IMG/VR virus record: IMGVR_UViG_2663763286_000006
Location: 1 to 10,081 of that record
DNA length: 10,081 nucleotides
Source: a virus
Lineage: Duplodnaviria; Heunggongvirae; Uroviricota; Caudoviricetes
Direction: 5' to 3' (one strand)
Part shown: piece after piece, positions 1 through 10,081 of the stretch
Numbering within the stretch: the first letter of the stretch is position 1
Layout: the number at the start of each line of letters is the position of its first letter
Notes under the pieces: model-generated
Databases searched by the model: none
Told to the model about the DNA's origin: nothing
Seen by the model: only the letters and a program-made list of their open reading frames with translations
Translations under genes and position numbers: made by a program

Positions 1-2
1 TA

Positions 3-119
3 ACGTGGGTGGACTGGTATAACAATCGACGATTGCTGGAAAGGCTGGGCCATATTCCTCCGGCAGAAGCAGAAAAAGCTTATTATGCTTCCATCGGAAA
101 TAATGATCTGGCAGCCTGA
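3..119 (+). CDS. IS3-family transposase OrfB, C-terminal fragment (…TWVDWYNNRRLLERLGHIPPAEAEKAYYASIGNNDLAA*)
   Basis: Open frame from the window edge to TGA at 117-119. The C-terminal tail is typical of IS3-family DDE transposases and lies 42 bp upstream of the IS terminus. Confidence 0.75.
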   Translation, partial: TWVDWYNNRRLLERLGHIPPAEAEKAYYASIGNNDLAA

Positions 120-136
120 GTTCACAGATAAAATAC

Positions 137-161
137 TCTCCAGGAAACCCGGGGCGGTTCA
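137..161. repeat. IS right terminal inverted repeat (tctccaggaaacccggggcggttca; reverse complement TGAACCGCCCCGGGTTTCCTGGAGA)
   Basis: Matches the repeat at 9701-9725 (TGAACCGCCCCGGAAATCCTGGAGA) at 22 of 25 positions; begins with the TGA terminus typical of IS3-family ends. Confidence 0.8.
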
Positions 162-680
162 GGCTGGCATATTTCCTGTTGCCTTCATGGCCTCCAAAAT
201 AACCAGAACGCCATCTCGCCCAACCACCTCAGCGATAACCTCGGTGTTGTCGCCAACAACATCGCAGAATGCCTGAACTGCCTTACGAGCCAGCTCATTC
301 TCCACTGCCAGCGCCGTGCGATTACCCTCCAGCTCTGCAATGCGCTGTTTTGCGGCATCCAGTTCAATCGACAATTTTTCCAACTGCTCTTGATGCTTCT
401 TGTATTCCTGATATGCGTGCCAAGACTGACCTTTGCGCACACTATCAGTGATATCAGTAATCTGTTCTGGTGTTAGCGTGGTCAGTGGCTGTGATGGGAA
501 AATAAGCACTTTCCCGGAATCCCAATCAAAACCAGCGTGAATTGACTGAACCTCAACTGAAGGTGTTGAACCAATGCTGCCAGGCGAATGAACAACGATC
601 GTTACATTCATATCGCGACGATGGCTGTGGTTGTTGGACAAAATACGATTCACCAACTCAGAAAATTTGGAAAATTTCAT
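159..680 (-). CDS. Prophage hypothetical protein with C-terminal coiled-coil (173 aa as read); 3' end probably truncated by the IS insertion
   Basis: ORF MKFSKFSELVNRIL… with a heptad-like segment (QEQLEKLSIELDAAKQRIAELEGNRTALAVENELARK). Its stop codon TGA (159-161) is the terminal TGA of the IS itself. The start overlaps the upstream gene stop in an ATGA arrangement. Confidence 0.5.
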   Translation of the reverse strand: MKFSKFSELVNRILSNNHSHRRDMNVTIVVHSPGSIGSTPSVEVQSIHAGFDWDSGKVLIFPSQPLTTLTPEQITDITDSVRKGQSWHAYQEYKKHQEQLEKLSIELDAAKQRIAELEGNRTALAVENELARKAVQAFCDVVGDNTEVIAEVVGRDGVLVILEAMKATGNMPA

Positions 681-967
681 GCTGATTCCCCTTTCTCTGC
701 TCTCTCCTGTCGGAACATCACTATCATCAGGTCGCCTTTTGTCGCTATCCTGGCTGTTGTACCTGGTTCAATGCGGCTAAGCTCAAATGCGTCATAGAAC
801 GCTTCTAATGCCTTCTGGCGTAGTTCCTGTTTGCGCCGTTTTTTCCACTGTTTTAGGAAAATGGAACCCAGCCATCGCCATGTACGGGACATGATGTAAA
901 GCCAACCGAGAAGTGCCAGACCGGTATTTAGGAGCGTATCGATCGTTATTGTCGTGTCGATATTCAC
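677..967 (-). CDS. Small putative membrane protein (96 aa, GTG start)
   Basis: A GTG at 967 overlaps the upstream stop (GTGA) and is preceded by AAGGAAG at about 6 nt. Hydrophobic segment LLNTGLALLGWLYIM followed by a basic stretch KQWKKRRKQ. The annotated ATG at 1000 has no Shine-Dalgarno sequence and would overlap the upstream gene by 36 nt. Confidence 0.45.
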   Translation of the reverse strand: MNIDTTITIDTLLNTGLALLGWLYIMSRTWRWLGSIFLKQWKKRRKQELRQKALEAFYDAFELSRIEPGTTARIATKGDLMIVMFRQERAEKGESA

Positions 968-1830
968 TGGCTGCTTCCTTTGCGAATCTGTTCCGCCCAT
1001 TCTTCAAGGGATTTCTCCGCATATTCACCAGACAGGCCATCAATCGGATGCGCTTCATTAGCCAACTCTTCTTTCGCTGACAAAATCATGCGTGTAACGT
1101 CGAAAACTTCACGCAAAGACTTATTGATAAATCCGTGATTGAACGCAGCAGCAAGACGGCTGGCGGTATAGTTAATCCCCTCGTTGCGTGCTTCCGCACG
1201 TACTTCAGCAAGGAAAGCATCGGTGGCTGGGGTTTCGACATTAGGTCGAAGCTCATAATCACAAACTCTTTCAATCCATGGTGATACTCTGTCGCATTTC
1301 CTCTTCTTGCGTTCACCGACCTTGGTTGCCTGCTGAATAATTACCCCCCAGCAAATGCTTTCGACCTCTTCGCTCCATCCATCGCAAGCATCACCTCTAT
1401 AGTCGTCAATTGCAGCCTCAGCAGCAGCGATAGCCTCCTCAGCAGTTTTGTGACACTCGAAACTAAATTCAGAGCCATATGAGAAATACATAGCCCCGGC
1501 CTTAAGCCCCGCATTCTCCGCCACCAGCGCCGCGAGATTAGTCTCAAGCTCTGCAATTCGACACATAGCATCAATATTTGTGTCCTCCAGGCGCTTAATT
1601 TCACCAAGCAGCTCCAGTGCAACCTTTGGGTTGAACGCGGCAACATAACGAGCGTTGTTCTCTGCATTTTTCTGTCCATCAAAGCCGGTCCATTTGATAA
1701 CGTCTTCACATCGTTCATCACCGGGCGTGTGCACCGCATAAGTACCAGTATCTGTCGAAATAAATGCGACCCATTCGTCTGGTGTTGCCTTTTCTGCCGC
1801 CTCACGCAGTACCTGATAGTCAATTGTCAT
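964..1830 (-). CDS. Ead/Ea22-like prophage protein (288 aa)
   Basis: N-terminus MTIDYQVLREAAEKATPDEW… and a central coiled-coil (LELLGEIKRLEDTNIDAMCRIAELETNLAALVAENAGLKA) resemble Ea22-like proteins of lambdoid early-left regions (from memory). Start chosen at the ATG that overlaps the upstream stop (ATGA), with AAGGA 8 nt upstream. Confidence 0.55.
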   Translation of the reverse strand: MTIDYQVLREAAEKATPDEWVAFISTDTGTYAVHTPGDERCEDVIKWTGFDGQKNAENNARYVAAFNPKVALELLGEIKRLEDTNIDAMCRIAELETNLAALVAENAGLKAGAMYFSYGSEFSFECHKTAEEAIAAAEAAIDDYRGDACDGWSEEVESICWGVIIQQATKVGERKKRKCDRVSPWIERVCDYELRPNVETPATDAFLAEVRAEARNEGINYTASRLAAAFNHGFINKSLREVFDVTRMILSAKEELANEAHPIDGLSGEYAEKSLEEWAEQIRKGSSQ

Positions 1831-2471
1831 TCTCGCCATCCTTCACAGTTGTAATCACTACAGCCTTCAAAATCATATGGGCTGTACTGCCAGGTTATTT
1901 TTCCGCAATGCGGACAATTCCAACGCACCTTCCCGCTTCGCGACTTCTTTCTTCTGTTTTGCTTTTTCAACCAGTCAGGCATGACCAAACCTGCGCCCTG
2001 AACCATTGTTCTGCGGTTAAAGTTATTGATATTGAACGTCCGGCGCTTTGCTGCATCAGCAATGGAAAATGGCAACCAAACTATTCCTGGTTCGTTTTTG
2101 TTGGCGACGCTAAAGATGGTCGCTTTACTGAAGTCATCTGTTGGCAATCCACCGTGTTGAAGCCAGTAAACATCGTTGCCGTTCCAGCTACCTTTTTTGT
2201 AGGCCACATACGCAGTGCAATCTGACTCAATCAGGCTTTCTGTAGGGATGTACTGGCAATCAACGTGCCACACAGCCATTGCATCCACGCTATCAGCGCA
2301 AACAGGCTGATCGATATCTCGTCCACAATTCCAGGCTTTTTGGGCTGCTTCCAGCGTGTAAACATGAGCGCGATCGATATCAGAACTGTAACCATTGCCG
2401 TTATGGCAATGGAATGAGGCGTTATTACCCACAGTTTCACGCAAGCACATCATGTAAAAGCGGTTATTCAC
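1827..2471 (-). CDS. Hypothetical protein with C-terminal Cys-rich zinc-ribbon-like motif (…WNCPHCGKITWQYSPYDFEGCSDYNCEGW)
   Basis: 214-codon ORF with a GTG start at 2471 preceded by GGGAGG at 6 nt; the stop overlaps the next start (ATGA). Function not recognised. Confidence 0.5.
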   Translation of the reverse strand: MNNRFYMMCLRETVGNNASFHCHNGNGYSSDIDRAHVYTLEAAQKAWNCGRDIDQPVCADSVDAMAVWHVDCQYIPTESLIESDCTAYVAYKKGSWNGNDVYWLQHGGLPTDDFSKATIFSVANKNEPGIVWLPFSIADAAKRRTFNINNFNRRTMVQGAGLVMPDWLKKQNRRKKSRSGKVRWNCPHCGKITWQYSPYDFEGCSDYNCEGWRE

Positions 2472-2679
2472 TGGATGCCTCCCAGCAAATTTGTCTTATA
2501 TAAGAACTGTTAACGCGCTTTACTTTCCCGTCGAACTCCAGTTTCTTTAGACGACGCAAAACGTATGCCGTTTTGAGTGTGCGATATTTATCCCTAAGCC
2601 AGTTGGTCACGACGTAAGTCATACAGCGCCCGTGTTCTTCCAACACCCGAACTATTTCTTCGTCGGTTGGCTTGCTCAT
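2464..2679 (-). CDS. Small basic protein (71 aa), possible DNA-binding protein
   Basis: ATG at 2679 preceded by AAGGAG at 7 nt; overlaps the upstream stop (ATGA). Basic and helix-rich (RRLKKLEFDGKVKR). A winged-helix fold is only a guess. Confidence 0.5.
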   Translation of the reverse strand: MSKPTDEEIVRVLEEHGRCMTYVVTNWLRDKYRTLKTAYVLRRLKKLEFDGKVKRVNSSYIRQICWEASSE

Positions 2680-2897
2680 TTTGTCGCTCCTTCAGCTTTC
2701 TCTACTTTCGCTGCCATGATTTCCAGCTTTTGTGCTGCCGATGCCGCTAACCTGTGAAATTCTTCATCTGTTTCAACTGGAATTGGTACAAACCTGACAC
2801 CAATTTGAGCAAGGCTATGCGCCATTTCGAGACTTGCTCTTAACTCTGCTGGGGATGCTTTATTCAGGCCGACTTCCTCACAAATAACTGATTGCAT
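2676..2897 (-). CDS. Hypothetical small protein (73 aa)
   Basis: ORF MQSVICEEVGLNKASPAELRASLEMAHSLAQIGVRFVPIPV…; sits 10 nt downstream of the preceding stop and is co-directional with its neighbours. Confidence 0.45.
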   Translation of the reverse strand: MQSVICEEVGLNKASPAELRASLEMAHSLAQIGVRFVPIPVETDEEFHRLAASAAQKLEIMAAKVEKAEGATK

Positions 2898-2906
2898 ACG
2901 CTCGCC

Positions 2907-3632
2907 CTACTGAATACGCTCAAACTCGATTACCCAAACCCAGGGATTAGCACTCCAGCTTTCTTCGCCGTAGATGGATTCCCACAGGCGCTGGAACGCA
3001 ACCTTGGCCATTGCGAAATCCCCCTTGGGAGTAAGGAATGTTCCCGGGTGATCAGGAAGCAAACTTCCAGCAGGCGGAACGCCCTCATCCCTTGCATCGC
3101 ATTCGCTGATATCGTTCAACCGCTCAACGCGCACGTTGGTAATTTCCACCAGGATGCGTGATGCCCATCGCGGCATGTGAATTGATGGACGCCACCCACC
3201 ATCAAACTTTTCATTCACAGTGTGAGGTTTCCAGTCGGCATCATCGGGTATCGACCATAAACCGTAATCACCAGGCTTTTGCTCACAACTGGCCCGATAA
3301 ATCCTTGCTGCGTTCTTCTCATCGCCACGACAAAGGTTGTCGTTCCAGTCCACACTGCAACCATCTTCATTGCCTAATATCGCCCATGTTTCACGAACCC
3401 AAATTCGATCGCCGACGATACCAAAGGGGCAATTGAAAACACTGCTTACACCATCAGCCCCGTACCACTGAAAACCTGCACCAATTTTTCTAACCATCAC
3501 CGGTGCTTCTGGACCAACTTCCGCAGGCTGATTTTTCATTATCCGCCGCGTCTGCGTTTTCCTTCCTTCGAGGATGGCCCGGACCATCTCATCGTTGAAA
3601 ATCATGCCGCGCTCTTTCACTTCGCCTTTCAT
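2907..3632 (-). CDS. Hypothetical phage protein, possibly ASCH/PUA-like fold (GRKTQTRR motif)
   Basis: Long ORF with an N-terminal …MIFNDEMVRAILEGRKTQTRRI… segment resembling the GxKxxExR-type ASCH signature (weak, from memory). Start placed at the third in-frame ATG (3632), which has AGGGGGA immediately upstream and lies 10 nt after the stop of the small peptide ORF. ATGs at 3668, 3650 and 3605 are alternatives. Confidence 0.5.
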   Translation of the reverse strand: MKGEVKERGMIFNDEMVRAILEGRKTQTRRIMKNQPAEVGPEAPVMVRKIGAGFQWYGADGVSSVFNCPFGIVGDRIWVRETWAILGNEDGCSVDWNDNLCRGDEKNAARIYRASCEQKPGDYGLWSIPDDADWKPHTVNEKFDGGWRPSIHMPRWASRILVEITNVRVERLNDISECDARDEGVPPAGSLLPDHPGTFLTPKGDFAMAKVAFQRLWESIYGEESWSANPWVWVIEFERIQ

Positions 3633-3642
3633 GCATCCCCCT

Positions 3643-3729
3643 TTACCCATGCGCGACGATGCCGCCAAAAGTGATAGAGAACAGCCAGAAATAGATCGCG
3701 GCCATAATGATTTTGAATGCCGTGTTCAT
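3643..3729 (-). CDS. Unannotated small hydrophobic peptide, 28 aa (MNTAFKIIMAAIYFWLFSITFGGIVAHG)
   Basis: Not in the supplied ORF track (too short). ATG at 3729 preceded by AGGAG with an 8-nt spacer. The peptide has a single predicted transmembrane-like core, and its stop lies 10 nt upstream of the next gene start. Confidence 0.35.
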   Translation of the reverse strand: MNTAFKIIMAAIYFWLFSITFGGIVAHG

Positions 3730-3757
3730 ATTTTCAGCTCCTGTGATTGATTGGATA

Positions 3758-3788
3758 CATGCCGCGCCTTGCGGCATGTTTTTATTTT
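3758..3788 (+). terminator. Intrinsic terminator-like hairpin oriented for the + strand (CATGCCGC-gcctt-GCGGCATG followed by TTTTTATTTT)
   Basis: 8-bp GC-rich stem, 5-nt loop and a T-rich tract on the + strand only. It is convergent with the minus-strand operon and lies immediately upstream of the small peptide gene's RBS. Confidence 0.5.
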
Positions 3789-3815
3789 CACTTCCCCTGT
3801 CTTAAAAATCAATAT

Positions 3816-3828
3816 TTATTAGAGCAAT
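3816..3828 (-). repeat. 13-mer junction motif ATTGCTCTAATAA (minus-strand orientation), copy A
   Basis: Exact copy; it overlaps the tandem stop codons (TAA TAA) of the HAD phosphatase gene. Confidence 0.6.
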
Positions 3829-4334
3829 TGTTGTTGATAAAGAAGCGCATTTTCATACTCCCTGACCATTAATGTAAGTACGCCATGACTCCTGAACACA
3901 CGCGCCACTTCAATCTTATCTTCCAGCGCGAACGCAATTTTACTTAGACCAATTTTCTTCAGGAGATCAATCTTTGCTGGACCGTCATTTCTGTCATCGG
4001 TGGCAGGACGCATAGATAGCAAAGGCTCAGCCCCGTTTGTTACGTACTTCCGCAGCCAGGCTCGTGTTTTATCCCTTGCGATCTCACAGCGCCCGGTTAC
4101 AAACCAGACCGTGTAAACGTTAAATAACTGGCGCACCATATCAATAACTGGAGTGATGGGAGCATCAGTGTCACAGGCAAGGTTAAACTCGTTCCAGTGC
4201 TCTGTTAATGCACCTTTGCCAGGTGGTGGAAGTAAATGCAGCCTGTCTTCCGTTGCCTCTGATATCGTCCCATCAATATCTACTATGACGATGTACGGAC
4301 GTTCCTGGTGTGCGTGTTTATTGAAAATACTCAA
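3819..4334 (-). CDS. HAD-superfamily phosphatase (polynucleotide-kinase 3'-phosphatase-like domain)
   Basis: HAD motif I IVIVDIDGT (DxDGT) near the N-terminus, motif II-like VWFVTGR, and a downstream acidic motif ATDDRND. TTG start at 4334 preceded by AGGAGG. Confidence 0.6.
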   Translation of the reverse strand: MSIFNKHAHQERPYIVIVDIDGTISEATEDRLHLLPPPGKGALTEHWNEFNLACDTDAPITPVIDMVRQLFNVYTVWFVTGRCEIARDKTRAWLRKYVTNGAEPLLSMRPATDDRNDGPAKIDLLKKIGLSKIAFALEDKIEVARVFRSHGVLTLMVREYENALLYQQQLL

Positions 4335-4352
4335 ATGCCCTCCTCATTGGAC

Positions 4353-4386
4353 GAAAAAAATGCTGGTGGGCGCACTCCACCAGCAT
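4353..4386 (-). terminator. Rho-independent terminator (minus strand): 10-bp stem ATGCTGGTGG/CCACCAGCAT, 7-nt loop, then U7
   Basis: Perfect 10-bp inverted repeat at 4360-4386 followed on the minus strand by TTTTTTT (4353-4359); located between the stop of the 420-aa gene (4407) and the HAD gene start (4334). Confidence 0.65.
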
Positions 4387-4406
4387 TAAAAGTGACACTG
4401 TAACTA

Positions 4407-5669
4407 TCAGCGAACGTAAATAGTGCCGCCGTTCTCTTTTTCCCATGCATCGCTACGTGCATAGCAAACATCGAGAAGTCTTCTTGCCGCAGTTTCCTCT
4501 AAACCCAATTCGACAACCAACTGCTCATGACGGCGGGTAACCACATCAAACAGGGTATGCAGCCCTTTAGTTGCCAGATCATCAATGAATTCCGGTTCGA
4601 ACGGCAGCTCTGCCTCTGCCAACATAACCTCTTGCGCCCACTCAACTCGACGGACCAGTTCCGGGCGGCGGCTTTCCATCTCTTTACAGATCAATTCATG
4701 GAAGAACTCTACCCAACCTTCCGGCTGGAACTCGCGGAAAATGGCCAACGGCTGGAAGTTTGGCATCAACCATTCGTTGATCCGGATATCAATGGCATAG
4801 CCCATGTCGCAGCAGAACTGATAAGCAAAGTCCAGCTTAGAAACGATATAAGGACGCTCGTTATTGAACTCTTTAGGCGATGAGATCCCATAAGCCAGGA
4901 GGCGCGGGAAGAAGGAGATTTGCCCTAACGTCGGATGAAGTTTTCTTGCAGGGAAACGGCGCTCAGTAATGCCATACATTTCCTTCTTGAGCGTCGCAAA
5001 TTTGGCATTCTCATTAACCAGCGCGGTAACCTCTGCTTTTTTATTAGCAAATGCCACGCGCGCTTCGCTTGCATCTTTAATAGTTTTTTTGAGCTGTTGG
5101 TTAAGGTCGGCGACCTGCTTACGCAGTTCCTGTCGCTCGCTTTTAGCTTTGTTATAGCGTTTCTCAAGGTTAAAAGGATCAAGTTTCATGATCTCTTTAT
5201 ATTGAGATTTTAGCGTTGAAATCTGTGAGTTCCGCAGTTCAACCATCGCGGTCATTTCATTGAGTTTTGTTTCCAGCTCAATGCTTATACGTTCGGCATT
5301 ATCAGCACGCTGGTTGGCGTCATGCGTCGCATCGTCGATCGCGTCCTGTTGCTGGCGTTTCAAATGTTCAATTTGCAGCTGAAGCTCTTCAATTTCTTTA
5401 CCCTTCAGACCGAGATCCAACTGCATATTTTCAGCTGCATCTACCAGGGAGTTATGGCTATCAGCTTCTGCGTTATAAACATCAATAAGCTGTGCGTGAA
5501 GCATCTCCGCTGACTGAACCGCATTATCAAAAAAACGCGCTGTGAGGTCATCACAACTAACGCGGCGTTGCGCGGCCCGGATGTTCTGGATAATGGCCGG
5601 GATACCGGCATTCAGGACGTCAGGGATAGATACATTTTCGATTGATTGGTTTTGTGCTGAAGTGCTCAT
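4407..5669 (-). CDS. Large hypothetical protein (420 aa): N-terminal coiled-coil (about residues 60-230), C-terminal globular domain of unknown function
   Basis: Long ORF with strong heptad periodicity and K/E/Q richness (…LQLQIEHLKRQQQDAIDD…ELRKQVADLNQQLKK…), then a Trp/Phe/Cys-containing C-terminal domain. Its start lies 1 nt after the upstream stop (TGAAATG). Confidence 0.6.
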   Translation of the reverse strand: MSTSAQNQSIENVSIPDVLNAGIPAIIQNIRAAQRRVSCDDLTARFFDNAVQSAEMLHAQLIDVYNAEADSHNSLVDAAENMQLDLGLKGKEIEELQLQIEHLKRQQQDAIDDATHDANQRADNAERISIELETKLNEMTAMVELRNSQISTLKSQYKEIMKLDPFNLEKRYNKAKSERQELRKQVADLNQQLKKTIKDASEARVAFANKKAEVTALVNENAKFATLKKEMYGITERRFPARKLHPTLGQISFFPRLLAYGISSPKEFNNERPYIVSKLDFAYQFCCDMGYAIDIRINEWLMPNFQPLAIFREFQPEGWVEFFHELICKEMESRRPELVRRVEWAQEVMLAEAELPFEPEFIDDLATKGLHTLFDVVTRRHEQLVVELGLEETAARRLLDVCYARSDAWEKENGGTIYVR

Positions 5670-5670
5670 T

Positions 5671-5889
5671 TCAAAGTTCCGTATTAGCTTGTGCTTCGGT
5701 CATTTTTCCTAAGTATGAAGGAGGAAGGACTACGCAATTTGTATCCAGTCCCTCACCTATGGCAGCCTGTAAAATTCTGGCTAAGGTGAGTCTCTTGTTG
5801 CGATACCTGGTGATGACATGCCTGATACCGCCGGTCGGCGTAACAAAGGCGATCAGCCAGTAGTGATATTTCCGTCGGAATGGCCACAT
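5671..5889 (-). CDS. Hypothetical small protein (72 aa)
   Basis: ATG at 5889 preceded by AAGGTG at 4 nt; the stop directly abuts the start of the 420-aa gene (coupled pair). Confidence 0.45.
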   Translation of the reverse strand: MWPFRRKYHYWLIAFVTPTGGIRHVITRYRNKRLTLARILQAAIGEGLDTNCVVLPPSYLGKMTEAQANTEL

Positions 5890-5903
5890 AGTGCACCTTG
5901 TAG

Positions 5904-5916
5904 ATTGCTCTAATAA
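5904..5916 (+). repeat. 13-mer junction motif ATTGCTCTAATAA (+ orientation), copy B
   Basis: Exact copy; forms a perfect 13-bp inverted repeat with copy C, enclosing the terminator hairpin. Confidence 0.6.
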
Positions 5917-5940
5917 AAAACGTGATGAGTGTACATCACG
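5915..5940 (-). terminator. Rho-independent terminator (minus strand): stem CGTGATG/CATCACG, 6-nt loop, then U6
   Basis: 7-bp inverted repeat at 5921-5940 followed on the minus strand by TTTTTT (5915-5920); lies between the GT-A-like gene stop (5971) and the 72-aa gene start (5889). Confidence 0.55.
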
Positions 5941-5956
5941 CTTTAAAAATATGGAA

Positions 5957-5969
5957 TTATTAGAGCAAT
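5957..5969 (-). repeat. 13-mer junction motif ATTGCTCTAATAA (minus-strand orientation), copy C
   Basis: Exact copy starting 1 nt after the stop codon of the 5971..6672 gene. Confidence 0.6.
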
Positions 5970-5970
5970 A

Positions 5971-6672
5971 TTATTCTGATTCTCGCTCAAAAAATGAGCT
6001 GACAAGGGGAAGCCAATCCTCTGACACTTCGCGAGGTCGCGGTTTGCCGTGGAAAAAGATTATTCGGCAGTCTTTTGGTAATGCCCCATTCCCCCTGGAG
6101 TAACGCGCGCTCGCATATTTTGAACCAGGTTCCACAACATCGGCCTTGTAACTTACAAACCATCCTGGATACAGATCCTGAAATGCTGGTGTATCATCGC
6201 CCATAACCTTCCGTAAGAACCCCTGATCACCCCAGCACTCAGTAGTGACACAACGAGAAATCCAACCTTCCGGATCTTGCCAGAATGAACTCCAGATATG
6301 CGCTTTAACACTATTTGGTATCCACAGGGCACCGCTGCCACGATATTGTGGATGGTAAAAATCCCTAAGCATGGTGAAGCTGGTTGGTGGATGCTCTAGG
6401 ATTGGGCGTATATCACCGGCAATAACCGTGTCCAAATCCAGATAGAACAGATCATCGGTTATATCCGGTCGGAACAACTCGATTTTCGCCCACCAGCCAC
6501 GGCACTTTTGCCACTGGTTGATCAATGGGACAACTTTGACGCCAGGTACATGTAAACGCTTCAGGTCTGTCAGGCAAATAATTTCATAGCCTTTTGGCAG
6601 TTGATTAACCAGCCACTGCACATCGGAAGCGTTATAGTCACCACCAGAGCGAAAAACTAAAGCAATCTTCAT
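5971..6672 (-). CDS. Hypothetical protein, possibly GT-A-fold nucleotide-sugar transferase-like (DxD-like LDLD motif)
   Basis: 233-aa ORF whose start overlaps the phosphatase stop (ATGA). It contains …[27 protein letters not shown]…, reminiscent of the sugar-binding/DxD region of GT-A glycosyltransferases. This is a weak, memory-based resemblance. Confidence 0.45.
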
Positions 6673-7346
6673 GCTGCACCATCACCTTTCACTTTCATCA
6701 ATGTCAGGTTTCCGCAAAATACGGCACCAGTGTCGATATACTGCTGATTCCAGAATGTCTTCGGGCTTTTCACCGGAGTGTGACCAAAGATAAAACGATC
6801 TGCGCCCGAAATTTCGCCACCAATATCATCCATCGAATCACTGATACGCTCGCGCGCCCAGACAACGTTGAAAAGCGGCACCTCCTTACCGAATTGGTAT
6901 TCATTATCCGGATAGTCGGCATGGGCTATAACGATAGTTTCTTGCCCGGTGTTCAACTCAATGATATAGGGCAGACGCTTTACCAGCTCCACCAGCGCCC
7001 AGGCTAATATTTCCTGATCAGTGTCCAGCATGAAGAACCATTGTCCGCCATTCATTAGCCAGTTATTCACGTTGCCATCTGGACTTAACGCATCAATCAT
7101 CAGCCGCTCATGGTTCCCCATCACTGCCCTGAACCAGGGCATCTGCAATAGTTCCAGACATTCGACATTTTCAGTACCGCGATCGATAAGGTCGCCGACC
7201 GATATCAGTAAATCCTGCGCCGGGTCAAAATCCACACGATGGAGTTCGGACATCAGTCTGGTGTAGCAACCATGCAGATCACCAACAACCCAGACATTCC
7301 TGTATTTGGTACCGTCGATACGGTGATAAATTGTGGGTGCCATCAT
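6669..7346 (-). CDS. Serine/threonine protein phosphatase, calcineurin-like metallophosphatase (phage lambda PPase / PrpA-PrpB-like)
   Basis: Canonical signature GDLHG … GDLIDRG … GNHE (DXH-GDXXDRG-GNHE). Length and N-terminus ([28 protein letters not shown]) align with lambda PPase as I recall it. Start chosen at the ATG overlapping the upstream stop (ATGA) rather than the ORF-track ATG at 7361. Confidence 0.85.
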
Positions 7347-7957
7347 GTATTCTTCAGCCATTCTTTAAGAGTCATCTGCGGAATACCTCCCATTTTCCCG
7401 CATGAAACAACGTCAATCCGTTCACGCGCAGACTGGAATAACAAAGGCAGGTGACTTAGATTTTTTGGCGTGCCGCCGGAGTGAACGCGTGGTTCTTGTG
7501 TAGCGTCAACGCCCACCAGGGCGACATGTTTGAATCCGATATGGAAAGCCAGGTTCAGAGCGCCATATGCACTATTGCCGCTGGCAATTTCATTCTCATC
7601 TTCGCAAAGTCCGAAATGTGCGGACCAGCGCCACGCCCACCACTCGGGAGAATGCTCCATGCCACGTTCAGCCACACGACGGAAGCACAGAACGCCGTCT
7701 CTGACTTCACGTTCTTTAACATCGGGTAGTGCCATGCAATAACAAACACCACGGCGACGGCGGCCACGACCAACGCGCCGCATATTGTCTGGCGATGGAT
7801 CAAGTGTGAAAAAATAAGAAGCGCGGTTCAGCCAGTCGATGGCCCCATTGACCGCTATAATCGGCACTCCGCGCGGCGCAACAAAGTTTGCGGCGCTTGG
7901 GCCACTGCCGACGATAATAACGCGATCACTGCCTCTAAATTTATTCTTGGGAAACAT
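7343..7957 (-). CDS. Hypothetical protein with N-terminal GSGPS nucleotide-binding-like motif (Cst-II/GT42-like or MptE/DUF115-like fold?), paralog 1
   Basis: Contains [10 protein letters not shown]…IIAVNG and later [16 protein letters not shown], which resemble the IIAGNGPSL and GYKEIYLSGID motifs of Campylobacter Cst-II-type sialyltransferases and DUF115 proteins (from memory). Clearly paralogous to the next gene upstream. Confidence 0.55.
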
Positions 7958-8484
7958 TGAATTGCACTGCTCCTACTTGCATTCAAAATATGTAAATCTG
8001 CGTGTTTTTTGCGGGTATCCAGGAACTGCTGTTGCCATTTTGAAATAGAAACCTGCGTTGGATTCCGTAGGGCTTGAGGGTGCGCGCCATGCCAATGAAG
8101 GCCGTTTTGCAGAGAACAGTCATAGCCGACTAATACCACTACTTCAGCCCCTGATTCAGCAGCCAGACTGATAGCCTGCGCGCCGCTATTTACCCCTTCC
8201 GCCGGTCCACAATATCGCCTGTACTCCAACGAAAATGATTTCGCCGCCGCCAGGTTGGCTGTCACTTTGCGGAATCTCCCTCCCGGTATGGTGGATCCGT
8301 ATTGCTTCCACCATGACAAATCACCGGCGTATAAGGCATAAATGTCATCGAACATCTGCCAGGAATTGTTAACCGCGATGATTGAACAGCCAGTTTTTTC
8401 TATAGCAGCACAGTCCTCACGAGTGAGTGACGGACCGCTACCGACACAAAAAACAGTCCTAGTCGCCCTGCGTGGTATGTTCAT
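7855..8484 (-). CDS. Hypothetical protein with GSGPS motif, paralog 2 (start placed at internal ATG by homology with paralog 1)
   Basis: Contains TVFCVGSGPS…IIAVNN and VVVLVGYDCS, matching paralog 1 motif for motif. Its C-terminal 34 codons overlap the start of paralog 1 by 103 nt. The ORF-track start at 8517 is an alternative. Confidence 0.5.
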   Translation of the reverse strand: MNIPRRATRTVFCVGSGPSLTREDCAAIEKTGCSIIAVNNSWQMFDDIYALYAGDLSWWKQYGSTIPGGRFRKVTANLAAAKSFSLEYRRYCGPAEGVNSGAQAISLAAESGAEVVVLVGYDCSLQNGLHWHGAHPQALRNPTQVSISKWQQQFLDTRKKHADLHILNASRSSAIQCFPRINLEAVIALLSSAVAQAPQTLLRRAECRL

Positions 8485-8680
8485 TCTCAGCTGCAAATTC
8501 AGCCTCCAGGCGAGCATTCATTTCAGCGATTACAGGGTCCACTACAGCATCTGTTTCCTGTTCATTACGCGGCATGATCGATGCCAGCGATTCATAATTA
8601 GCCTTGGATGACACGATTATTCTCCCGATGTTAATGTGCGCTATATCAAATGGCTCATATGTACTAATTAATTTATTATT

Positions 8681-9259
8681 TTAAGCAACATACAACCACT
8701 TGTCGCCGTTCAATACATGCTCAATAGCCTCACCCTTTTTAAGGCTTATGTATTCCAGGATGGCGGTTATCGCTTGTTCTGCACCATACGCAAGAACGAC
8801 GTAGTAACCTTCCTCTCTAAGCCTGCGCATCCAGGCGATCTGCTCTTTCGTCGGGGCTTTACCATTTGGTTCTTTAAGCTCAATTCGCATGCCGTGATAA
8901 ATACCGCATGCTTTATCGAGACTCATGTCCGGATAACCTTTTTTCTGCCCTTCAGCCTTCATTTTCCCGGCGGTTGCTTTTGAACGTTTCCATCCGTTAG
9001 GCGTTGCATGCAACAGCTCATAGATGTCAGGGTGCTTGCGTTCGAAGTAATCAAAAATGAAAACCTGCTCGAAGTGCTCGCAATTTCCGTCGCGCAGGTC
9101 TGGGTTCTTTGCCAGTGCTGCAAGTGCCTTCGCATGTGGAGAAACTTCTTTTACCGGCGCAAGCGATAAGAATGGATCCTTTTTGGTTTTTGGCCTGGAC
9201 CGCCCCTTATTTCGACGCTCACTAAAAGCCTGAAACTCTTCCTCAGTAAAGCGCAACAT
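8681..9259 (-). CDS. VRR-NUC domain (PD-(D/E)xK-type) nuclease-like protein
   Basis: C-terminal half has GYPDM … IELKEPNGKAPTKEQIAWMRRLREEGYYVVLAYG, matching the VRR-NUC pattern (PD … ExK … Q … G-hydrophobic). ATG start at 9259 lies 2 nt after the upstream stop. Confidence 0.6.
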   Translation of the reverse strand: MLRFTEEEFQAFSERRNKGRSRPKTKKDPFLSLAPVKEVSPHAKALAALAKNPDLRDGNCEHFEQVFIFDYFERKHPDIYELLHATPNGWKRSKATAGKMKAEGQKKGYPDMSLDKACGIYHGMRIELKEPNGKAPTKEQIAWMRRLREEGYYVVLAYGAEQAITAILEYISLKKGEAIEHVLNGDKWLYVA

Positions 9260-9261
9260 AA

Positions 9262-9507
9262 TCAGTCAAATCCTGCCGGTCGCATGCCATATTTACGCTG
9301 TTTTGCGGCCTGCTCTTCCCTGTGCCATTGCGCACATTCAGCGTCACAATTAATGCCTGATTCAATCGATTCATTGCAGTAACGACACTTCCCTGTAAAT
9401 ACCTGGCTCACGACCTGTGCCTGCTTTCTGATGTTATCGATGGCCATGTCTTTGAGAGCTTCTAACTGATTCATGCTCAGCTCTGCATCATCAACACGTT
9501 CTGCCAA
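9262..9507 (-). CDS. TraR/DksA-family C4 zinc-finger protein (lambda Orf73-like), TTG start
   Basis: CxxC…(17)…CxxxC arrangement (CRYCNESIESGINCDAEC) in a roughly 80-aa protein with an N-terminal helical segment. TTG at 9507 is preceded by GAGGAAA at 5 nt; an internal ATG 11 codons in is an alternative start. Confidence 0.5.
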   Translation of the reverse strand: MAERVDDAELSMNQLEALKDMAIDNIRKQAQVVSQVFTGKCRYCNESIESGINCDAECAQWHREEQAAKQRKYGMRPAGFD

Positions 9508-9564
9508 TTTTGTTTCCTCGTGAAGAACCTACTTAAGGGCAGAATGATACATTTCACATTCAAA

Positions 9565-9577
9565 ATTGCACTAATAA
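9565..9577 (+). repeat. Variant copy of the 13-mer motif (ATTGCACTAATAA, 1 mismatch), + orientation
   Basis: 12 of 13 identity to the motif at 5904-5916, located in the AT-rich region upstream of the first gene of the minus-strand gene array. Confidence 0.4.
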
Positions 9578-9700
9578 TTTTCTTTTATTGAGTTAAATAT
9601 TCAACAAATGACTAGCGGTAGAATCACCATCATCTATTTCTGGCAGGCTGACTATGGCTACATCAATCACTACAACCCAAAGCACCCGGCAATATCCTCT

Positions 9701-9725
9701 TGAACCGCCCCGGAAATCCTGGAGA
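9701..9725. repeat. IS left terminal inverted repeat (TGAACCGCCCCGGAAATCCTGGAGA)
   Basis: Inverted match to 137-161. Confidence 0.8.
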
Positions 9726-9754
9726 CTAAACTCCCTGAGAAAGAGGTAAACAGG

Positions 9755-10081
9755 ATGACTAAAAATACTCGTTTTTCCCCCGAGGTCCGTCAACGGGCAG
9801 TTCGTATGGTTCTGGAAAGTCAGGGCGAATATGACTCACAATGGGCGGCAATTTGTTCCATTGCCCCAAAGATTGGCTGTACACCAGAGACTCTGCGTGT
9901 GTGGGTTCGTCAGCATGAGCGGGATACCGGGAGTGGTGATGGTGGACTCACCACCGCTGAACGTCAGCGTCTGAAAGAGCTGGAACGTGAAAATCGTGAA
10001 CTGCGCCGCAGTAACGATATCCTTCGCCAGGCTTCCGCTTATTTTGCGAAGGCGGAGTTCGACCGCCTCTGGAAAAAATGA
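9755..10081 (+). CDS. IS3-family transposase OrfA (108 aa; helix-turn-helix and leucine-zipper region)
   Basis: [57 protein letters not shown]… followed by a leucine-zipper-like [30 protein letters not shown]. Ends in an A-rich stretch (GGAAAAAATGA) where the programmed -1 frameshift into orfB is expected in this family. Confidence 0.85.

Follow-up and report, generated by a model that had tools for sequence, protein, structure and literature searches.

C1 Operators of Bacteriophage P1

In bacteriophage P1, lytic functions are repressed by the C1 protein, the master repressor of lysogeny in P1 and in related plasmid prophages, which binds to asymmetric operators dispersed over the genome. A later paper (PMC8546580) reports 22 such operators in P1 and quotes, from the P1 genome paper, their consensus as the asymmetric 17-mer ATTGCTCTAATAAATTT; this paper and the notes in the P1 GenBank record also describe that binding of C1 is strengthened by Lxc and antagonized by Coi and Ant. 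C1 operators have been known since the 1980s, and their consensus and positions are part of the reference GenBank record of the P1 genome authors, AF234172, whose 'phage repressor C1' protein_bind features served as operator annotation in this study. One of these features, Omat/Op2b (AF234172 2628-2645), has a length of 18 nt and apparently carries the wrong strand assignment, as the sequence that resembles an operator, CATGCACTAATAAATAT, is found on the opposite strand.

The closest described relatives of the locus presented here are the P1 and P7 operators Op82/O26, Op86a and Op86b (also named OpmgRa and OpmgRb) and Op88/OpmgT, which are located at pmgL/26, pmgQ/pmgR and pap/pmgT, respectively. 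pmgR is essential for the assembly of P1 virions (PMC9024508). All of these operators are asymmetric, and the two Op86 sites are convergent. Op86a and Op86b are each called 'monovalent' in the P1 record, which further states that Op86a 'controls expression of pmgR and pmgS', and two C1 sites are annotated at the pmgQ/pmgR position in the P7 record, too. Two convergent (tail-to-tail) C1 sites at a promoter are also found in the bivalent P1 operators Op72ab/Obanab and Op99ab/Oc1ab, where they form an imperfect palindrome; however, the 17-mers of the bivalent operators overlap by 6 bp, whereas the Op86 sites lie 32 bp apart, with a -10 element and a terminator hairpin in the gap. Earlier mapping by experiment is suggested by the names 'former Op82/86/88' in the GenBank notes, and binding of C1 at Op82, Op86 and Op88 was reportedly demonstrated in the work of Schuster and Sternberg.

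Here, we describe a stretch of viral DNA of 10,081 nucleotides (IMG/VR record IMGVR_UViG_2663763286_000006, positions 1 to 10,081; referred to as the window), in which a 13-bp motif recurs that very probably represents the core of the C1 operator. The host element is of the same, P1-like type (98% identity), the sites occupy the same places, and there is no difference of substance between them and the P1 operators: the Op88 site of the window has a T instead of a C at position 16, its Op83 homologue has two mismatches more, IS3-family insertions flank the segment, and the window contains no c1. The appropriate annotation of the sites would thus be C1 operators and not antitermination sites or lambdoid boundary sequences. 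C1 operators mark a P1-type phage-plasmid, in which the C1/Lxc/Coi immunity circuit governs early and morphogenetic operons, among them the one with the essential pmgR. What the present comparison adds is evidence from relatives for a conserved terminator of minus-strand RNA in the hairpin between Op86a and Op86b, and for an operator-terminator-operator geometry that has been retained in a distantly related Cronobacter phage.

A P1-Like Segment Bracketed by Insertion Sequences

Positions 2937-9700 of the window are 98.4% identical to bacteriophage P1 (AF234172 78409-85183, reverse strand), and positions 162-9700 are 98-99% identical to P1-like E. coli plasmids of approximately 95 kb. According to the P1 record, the minus strand encodes pmgL, pmgM, pmgN/O/P, ppp, pmgQ, pmgR, pmgS, pap and pmgT. 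Because of this identity and gene set, the source element is, as judged from its sequence, a P1-type (Punavirus) phage-plasmid and not a lambdoid prophage. The gene pmgQ (5971-6672, minus strand) is the last gene of the upstream transcription unit, the transcripts of which run into the hairpin terminator described below; it is followed on the same strand by pmgR (5671-5889), which encodes a protein of 72 aa and forms an operon with pmgS (4407-5669) that is placed under the control of Op86a and Op86b.

The left third of the window (162-2936) is unlike reference P1 and contains accessory genes of lambdoid type (DUF4752, Ead/Ea22-like and DUF1382), which are also present in E. coli EC23 plasmid p2. 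A reading of the window made from the sequence alone (hereafter the sequence-only reading) had brought lambdoid phages into consideration, probably because of these genes. No c1 gene is present within the window; in P1, c1 is located about 8 kb beyond the homologous segment. Within a 33-kb neighborhood of EC23 plasmid p2, the best plasmid match, the arrangement is unlike that of P1, and no c1 was found within 11 kb. Positions 1-3000 of this plasmid contain pacB followed by ash/icd/antirepressor genes, where P1 carries c1-coi-lox; that lineage thus has a different arrangement of its immunity regions.

Both ends of the window belong to an IS3-family insertion sequence of 1,310 bp, with its last 161 bp at positions 1-161 and its first 381 bp at positions 9701-10081; based on the start of its ORF A, we take it to be IS629. 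Both ends map to a single copy in NZ_CP023674.1 (26640-26800 and 25491-25871, respectively) and have the same orientation, so that a direct IS copy lies on either side of the 9.5-kb P1-like segment. The IS junctions of the window were found in no record searched, and the best E. coli records cover only positions 162-9700. The right-hand copy cuts the P1 baseplate gene 26 (ATG at 9654) after 47 nt (9654-9700), and the left-hand copy cuts a hypothetical gene, which is a homolog of EC23 plasmid p2 11133-11867. With both genes disrupted, the P1-like element is probably defective as a phage.

A Recurring Motif at Gene Junctions

A scan of the window recovered three exact copies of the 13-mer ATTGCTCTAATAA, namely at 3816-3828 (minus strand), 5904-5916 (plus strand) and 5957-5969 (minus strand), and a further copy with one mismatch (12/13) at 9565-9577 (plus strand); all four had been listed in the sequence-only reading. 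If up to two mismatches are allowed, the window contains four matches, while 0.30 would be expected by chance; this number was not reached in any of 200 shuffles that preserve dinucleotides, which bears out the view that the motif is not random. The claim that the copies are placed at junctions holds as well: the copy at 3816-3828 contains the stop codon of pap (3819-3821; ORF 3819-4334), the copy at 5957-5969 begins 1 nt past the pmgQ stop codon (5971-5973), the site beginning at 5904 is separated from the pmgR start codon (ATG at 5889) by 14 nt, and the variant at 9565-9577 lies within the divergent control region of pmgL and gene 26. Two features had been missed in the sequence-only reading, namely that each copy extends to a 17-bp site and that a fifth, degenerate site is present at 8658-8674 (plus strand), the homolog of P1 Op83.

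Since all copies are found at gene or operon junctions, and since the cargo of the left third of the window differs from reference P1, it might be speculated that the motif is a conserved boundary sequence that promotes modular (mosaic) exchange between phages, as had been suggested for lambdoid phages. This is highly improbable. Similarity to related elements breaks at positions 162, 2937 and 9700, and in some plasmids also at around 6148, but at none of the motif copies; two of these breakpoints, 162 and 9700, represent IS insertions, and the element is P1-like. Moreover, the junction placement is accounted for by promoter placement: P1 is densely packed, so that the promoter of an operon is found a few bases after the preceding stop codon, and the operators are located there, too.

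Match of the Motif to the C1 Operator

The 13-mer ATTGCTCTAATAA is identical to the first 13 nt of the C1 consensus ATTGCTCTAATAAATTT, and GCTCTAAT corresponds to the operator core. The features OpmgT, OpmgRa, OpmgRb and O26 of AF234172 map exactly onto the four sites of the window. The Op88/OpmgT site (3812-3828, minus strand; ATTGCTCTAATAAATAT) matches the consensus at 16 of 17 positions and scores 26.8 bits with a position weight matrix (PWM), which was built from 14 P1 operators, all located outside the homologous region. Op86b/OpmgRb (5904-5920, plus strand; ATTGCTCTAATAAAAAA; 14/17, 21.6 bits) is identical to its P1 counterpart including the flanks, and the 17-mers of Op86a/OpmgRa (5953-5969, minus strand; ATTGCTCTAATAATTCC; 14/17, 21.4 bits) and Op82/O26 (9565-9581, plus strand; ATTGCACTAATAATTTT; 15/17, 24.6 bits), the latter in the pmgL/gene 26 control region, are likewise identical to those of P1. 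Hence, three of the four 17-mers are the same as in P1 and the fourth differs by 1 nt.

The scores of the four sites (21.4-26.8 bits) fall within the range of the training operators (15.8-28.2 bits). The maxima of simulated random windows had a mean of 10.2 bits (sd 2.8); as one of these windows reached 21.2 bits, a single site of 21.4 bits would not be decisive by its score alone, and the assignment is based on the four sites and their orthology, not on the score of any one of them. The fifth site, the Op83/Oppp homolog (8658-8674, plus strand; TATGTACTAATTAATTT), differs from the P1 site CATGCACTAATTAATTT at two positions, including the highly conserved C5, and its score of 13.9 bits is lower than that of every training operator. 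It is thus probably weak or inactive, and the pmgN-ppp-pmgQ unit may be under less stringent control by C1 in this element.

The distribution of the motif in P1 itself points in the same direction. The 94.8-kb P1 genome contains seven exact copies of the 13-mer and five copies with one mismatch, and all twelve are annotated C1 operators. Each of them is located at a gene edge or in intergenic DNA, and the motif is not scattered through coding regions in this genome. Taken together, we assign a probability of approximately 0.96 to the reading that the asymmetric 17-bp operator of the P1 C1 repressor has the recurring motif as its conserved 13-bp core, and C1 would be expected to bind to these sites in this particular element. 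One of the proposals of the sequence-only reading, operator half-sites for a phage regulator, was therefore right with regard to the regulator, but the sites appear to be complete asymmetric 17-bp operators and not half-sites. The idea that a TraR-like protein binds the motif found no support, as a Pfam scan of PmgR (72 aa) and the other small ORFs included revealed no TraR/DksA hit.

The motif had also been compared to boxA, and it does share the hexamer TGCTCT with the rrn and lambda boxA elements. According to this reading, the motif would act in the RNA, as UGCUCUAAUAA, by loading NusB/NusE (S10), thereby leading to read-through of the terminator at 5915-5940 and of other junctions; Op86a is indeed transcribed in sense orientation just upstream of the terminator hairpin. 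However, the overall match is poor, with at best 6-9 of 13 positions for rrn boxA (TGCTCTTTAACAA) and only 5-6 of 8 for lambda boxA (CGCTCTTA), whereas the C1 consensus is matched at 14-16 of 17 positions. The conserved stretch also includes the A/T-rich tail, which is specific to the C1 site. Furthermore, the copies do not share one orientation with respect to the minus-strand genes: Op86b is antisense to them, so that the mRNA carries its complement, and Op82 is antisense to pmgL. Finally, the motif has an established role as a repressor site at the DNA level. In P1, it is annotated as such at Pc1, P1coi, P1ban and PkilA, and the promoters of c1, coi, ban, kilA-repL, ssb and lpa all carry it. 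A role of the motif as boxA can thus be regarded as very improbable, and an Rfam scan of the window matched no family.

A Probable Terminator Hairpin between Op86a and Op86b

The motif copies at 5904-5916 and 5957-5969 are perfect inverted repeats of each other over 13 bp and enclose a hairpin, as the sequence-only reading had noted. On the plus strand, the stem of this hairpin is formed by 5921-5927 and 5934-5940 and its loop by 5928-5933. On the minus strand, the intrinsic terminator spans 5940 to 5915 and consists of the stem CGUGAUG/CAUCACG (5940-5934/5927-5921), the loop UACACU (5933-5928) and a U6 tract (5920-5915). Its core stem has 7 bp, or 11 bp with the A-U extension, and the minus-strand hairpin folds at -13.1 kcal/mol (z = -6.6). 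The 87 nt between the pmgQ stop codon and the pmgR start codon on the minus strand contain, in this order, Op86a, a 17-nt spacer, the predicted -10 element, the stem-loop, which lies 31 nt after the pmgQ stop codon, the U6 tract, the complement of Op86b, the Shine-Dalgarno sequence AAGGUG and the pmgR ATG. Read in the complement, the A-rich tail of Op86b forms the U-tract, and this double use explains why Op86b deviates from the consensus at positions 15-17. A pattern scan for promoters and terminators missed this terminator, which is an artefact, since greedy stem extension took up the T-run.

Sequences of relatives were used to assess the hairpin. A scan of IMG/VR for the convergent operator pair yielded more than 119 loci, almost all of which are nearly identical, with 21 distinct module variants; the same scan of genome contigs yielded only two loci, both from Escherichia. 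Nineteen of the 21 variants were aligned for covariation. The 7-bp stem is paired in 96.2% of the cells of this alignment, compared to at most 58% in controls with a slid 3' partner. Two stem pairs show a compensatory double change (G-C to A-U and A-U to G-C) in three sequences; these changes probably stem from one lineage, so that the number of independent covariation events is small. In addition, five cells contain G-U wobble pairs, which would be C·A mismatches on the opposite strand.

A more distant comparison is provided by the Cronobacter phage JK004, which shares 71.6% nucleotide identity with the window over the pmgQ/pmgR region. The core of Op86a is conserved at 13 of 13 and that of Op86b at 12 of 13 positions, the U6 tract and the 49-bp offset of the operators are unchanged, and a 17-mer identical to the Op88 site of the window is present at the homologous place. 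Divergence is seen in the leader (5/14 identical), the 3' end of pmgQ (17/30) and the loop (3/6). The stem has changed from G-C to A-U, from A-U to G-C and from U-A to U-G. With these changes, the minus-strand RNA keeps its folding energy (-14.0 compared to -13.4 kcal/mol), whereas the plus-strand version loses energy (from -9.1 to -5.8 kcal/mol). JK004 also encodes a C1 homolog with 76% amino acid identity. In fact, all phage records with this region, namely P1, P7, SJ46, RCS47 and JK004, encode C1, and the repressor and its operators therefore travel together.

Everything points to the hairpin being a genuine intrinsic terminator for minus-strand ppp-pmgQ transcripts, in line with the terminator call of the sequence-only reading: the stem-loop and U6 tract follow the pmgQ stop codon, and stem pairing is kept in relatives.

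A different question is whether the operators themselves act in the RNA. The full 66 nt of the minus-strand RNA (5969-5904) fold at -26.4 kcal/mol, and the predicted minimum free energy structure is exactly the one that had been proposed, a 13-bp outer stem around the terminator, which is hence real on paper. In read-through RNA, the paired arms of Op86a and Op86b together with the hairpin could act as a stable 3' structure or as an RNase III-type site that uncouples the pmgR-pmgS mRNA from the upstream mRNA. The pair, its orientation and its spacing are kept in the 21 module variants seen and in JK004, as would be expected for such an element; however, the search pattern used for IMG/VR demanded intact operator arms, and their conservation in this set is partly due to its construction. 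More importantly, an outer stem is what any two convergent copies of a single protein-binding site would produce, and neither its existence nor its conservation needs an RNA explanation. The only changes in the arms are uncompensated terminal mismatches at position 1 of Op86b (A to G in JK004 and A to T in variant L075), and termination at the inner hairpin would precede transcription of the 3' arm. A function of the outer stem in RNA is thus quite unlikely, and the arms are better explained as binding sites for C1.

Proposed Control of the Junctions by C1

The P1 annotation contains a predicted sigma-70 promoter of pmgR, PpmgR (5940-5968, minus strand), with the -35 element TTGCTC (5968-5963), a 17-nt spacer and the -10 element TAAAGC (5945-5940). 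The predicted -35 element TTGCTC of PpmgR is located inside Op86a, and that of P2pmgT inside Op88 in the P1 record. Both promoters are predictions of that record and weak (-10 TAAAGC), and a consensus promoter scan of the window recovered neither predicted PpmgR nor PpmgT; the model below presumes that PpmgR is real and located at the predicted position.

In the lysogen, C1 would bind to each operator together with its co-repressor Lxc and thereby switch off the adjoining or overlapping sigma-70 promoters, which would keep the early and morphogenetic operons, that is, the pmgT unit, pmgR-pmgS and the units of pmgL and gene 26, silent. At the pmgQ/pmgR junction, C1 bound to Op86a would occlude the -35 element of PpmgR, and C1 at Op86b would sit between the transcription start site and the ribosome-binding site of pmgR. 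The pmgT unit would be controlled in the same way by Op88, and the divergent pmgL/26 region by Op82. The terminator between Op86a and Op86b would end the transcripts that arrive from ppp-pmgQ, whereas transcripts from PpmgR itself, which presumably start at around 5933, approximately 7 nt past the -10 element and inside the hairpin, would escape termination.

It is tempting to speculate that Op86a, the terminator and Op86b form a conserved composite 'junction module', which is more than two independent operators. In such a module, the terminator could insulate pmgR-pmgS from upstream transcription with the start of PpmgR inside the hairpin, and C1 bound to the convergent sites would clamp the unit, for instance as a roadblock to read-through or through contacts of one site with the other. 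In another version, a 13-bp RNA stem formed by the operator arms would direct the processing of read-through mRNA. The conservation of the 49-bp offset and of all parts of the module at 72% identity is compatible with coupling, but independent constraints explain it equally well, and we consider the composite module unlikely.

Two further terminator-like structures were observed in the window. A strong intrinsic terminator with an 11-bp stem and a T5 run is located between pmgS and pap (4359-4387, minus strand); it marks the end of the pmgR-pmgS operon, so that no annotated promoter is left for pap. Another strong terminator-like hairpin (3757-3779, plus strand), with a 10-bp stem containing six G-C pairs and a T-run, is found between Op88 and the start of pmgT and is antisense to all genes. 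The P1 record notes 96% identity between this stretch and the DNA that lies downstream of both the EcoDXXI hsd locus and R124/3 hsdR, and in view of this identity to hsd-flanking DNA, the terminator at 3757-3779 may have been imported with foreign DNA.
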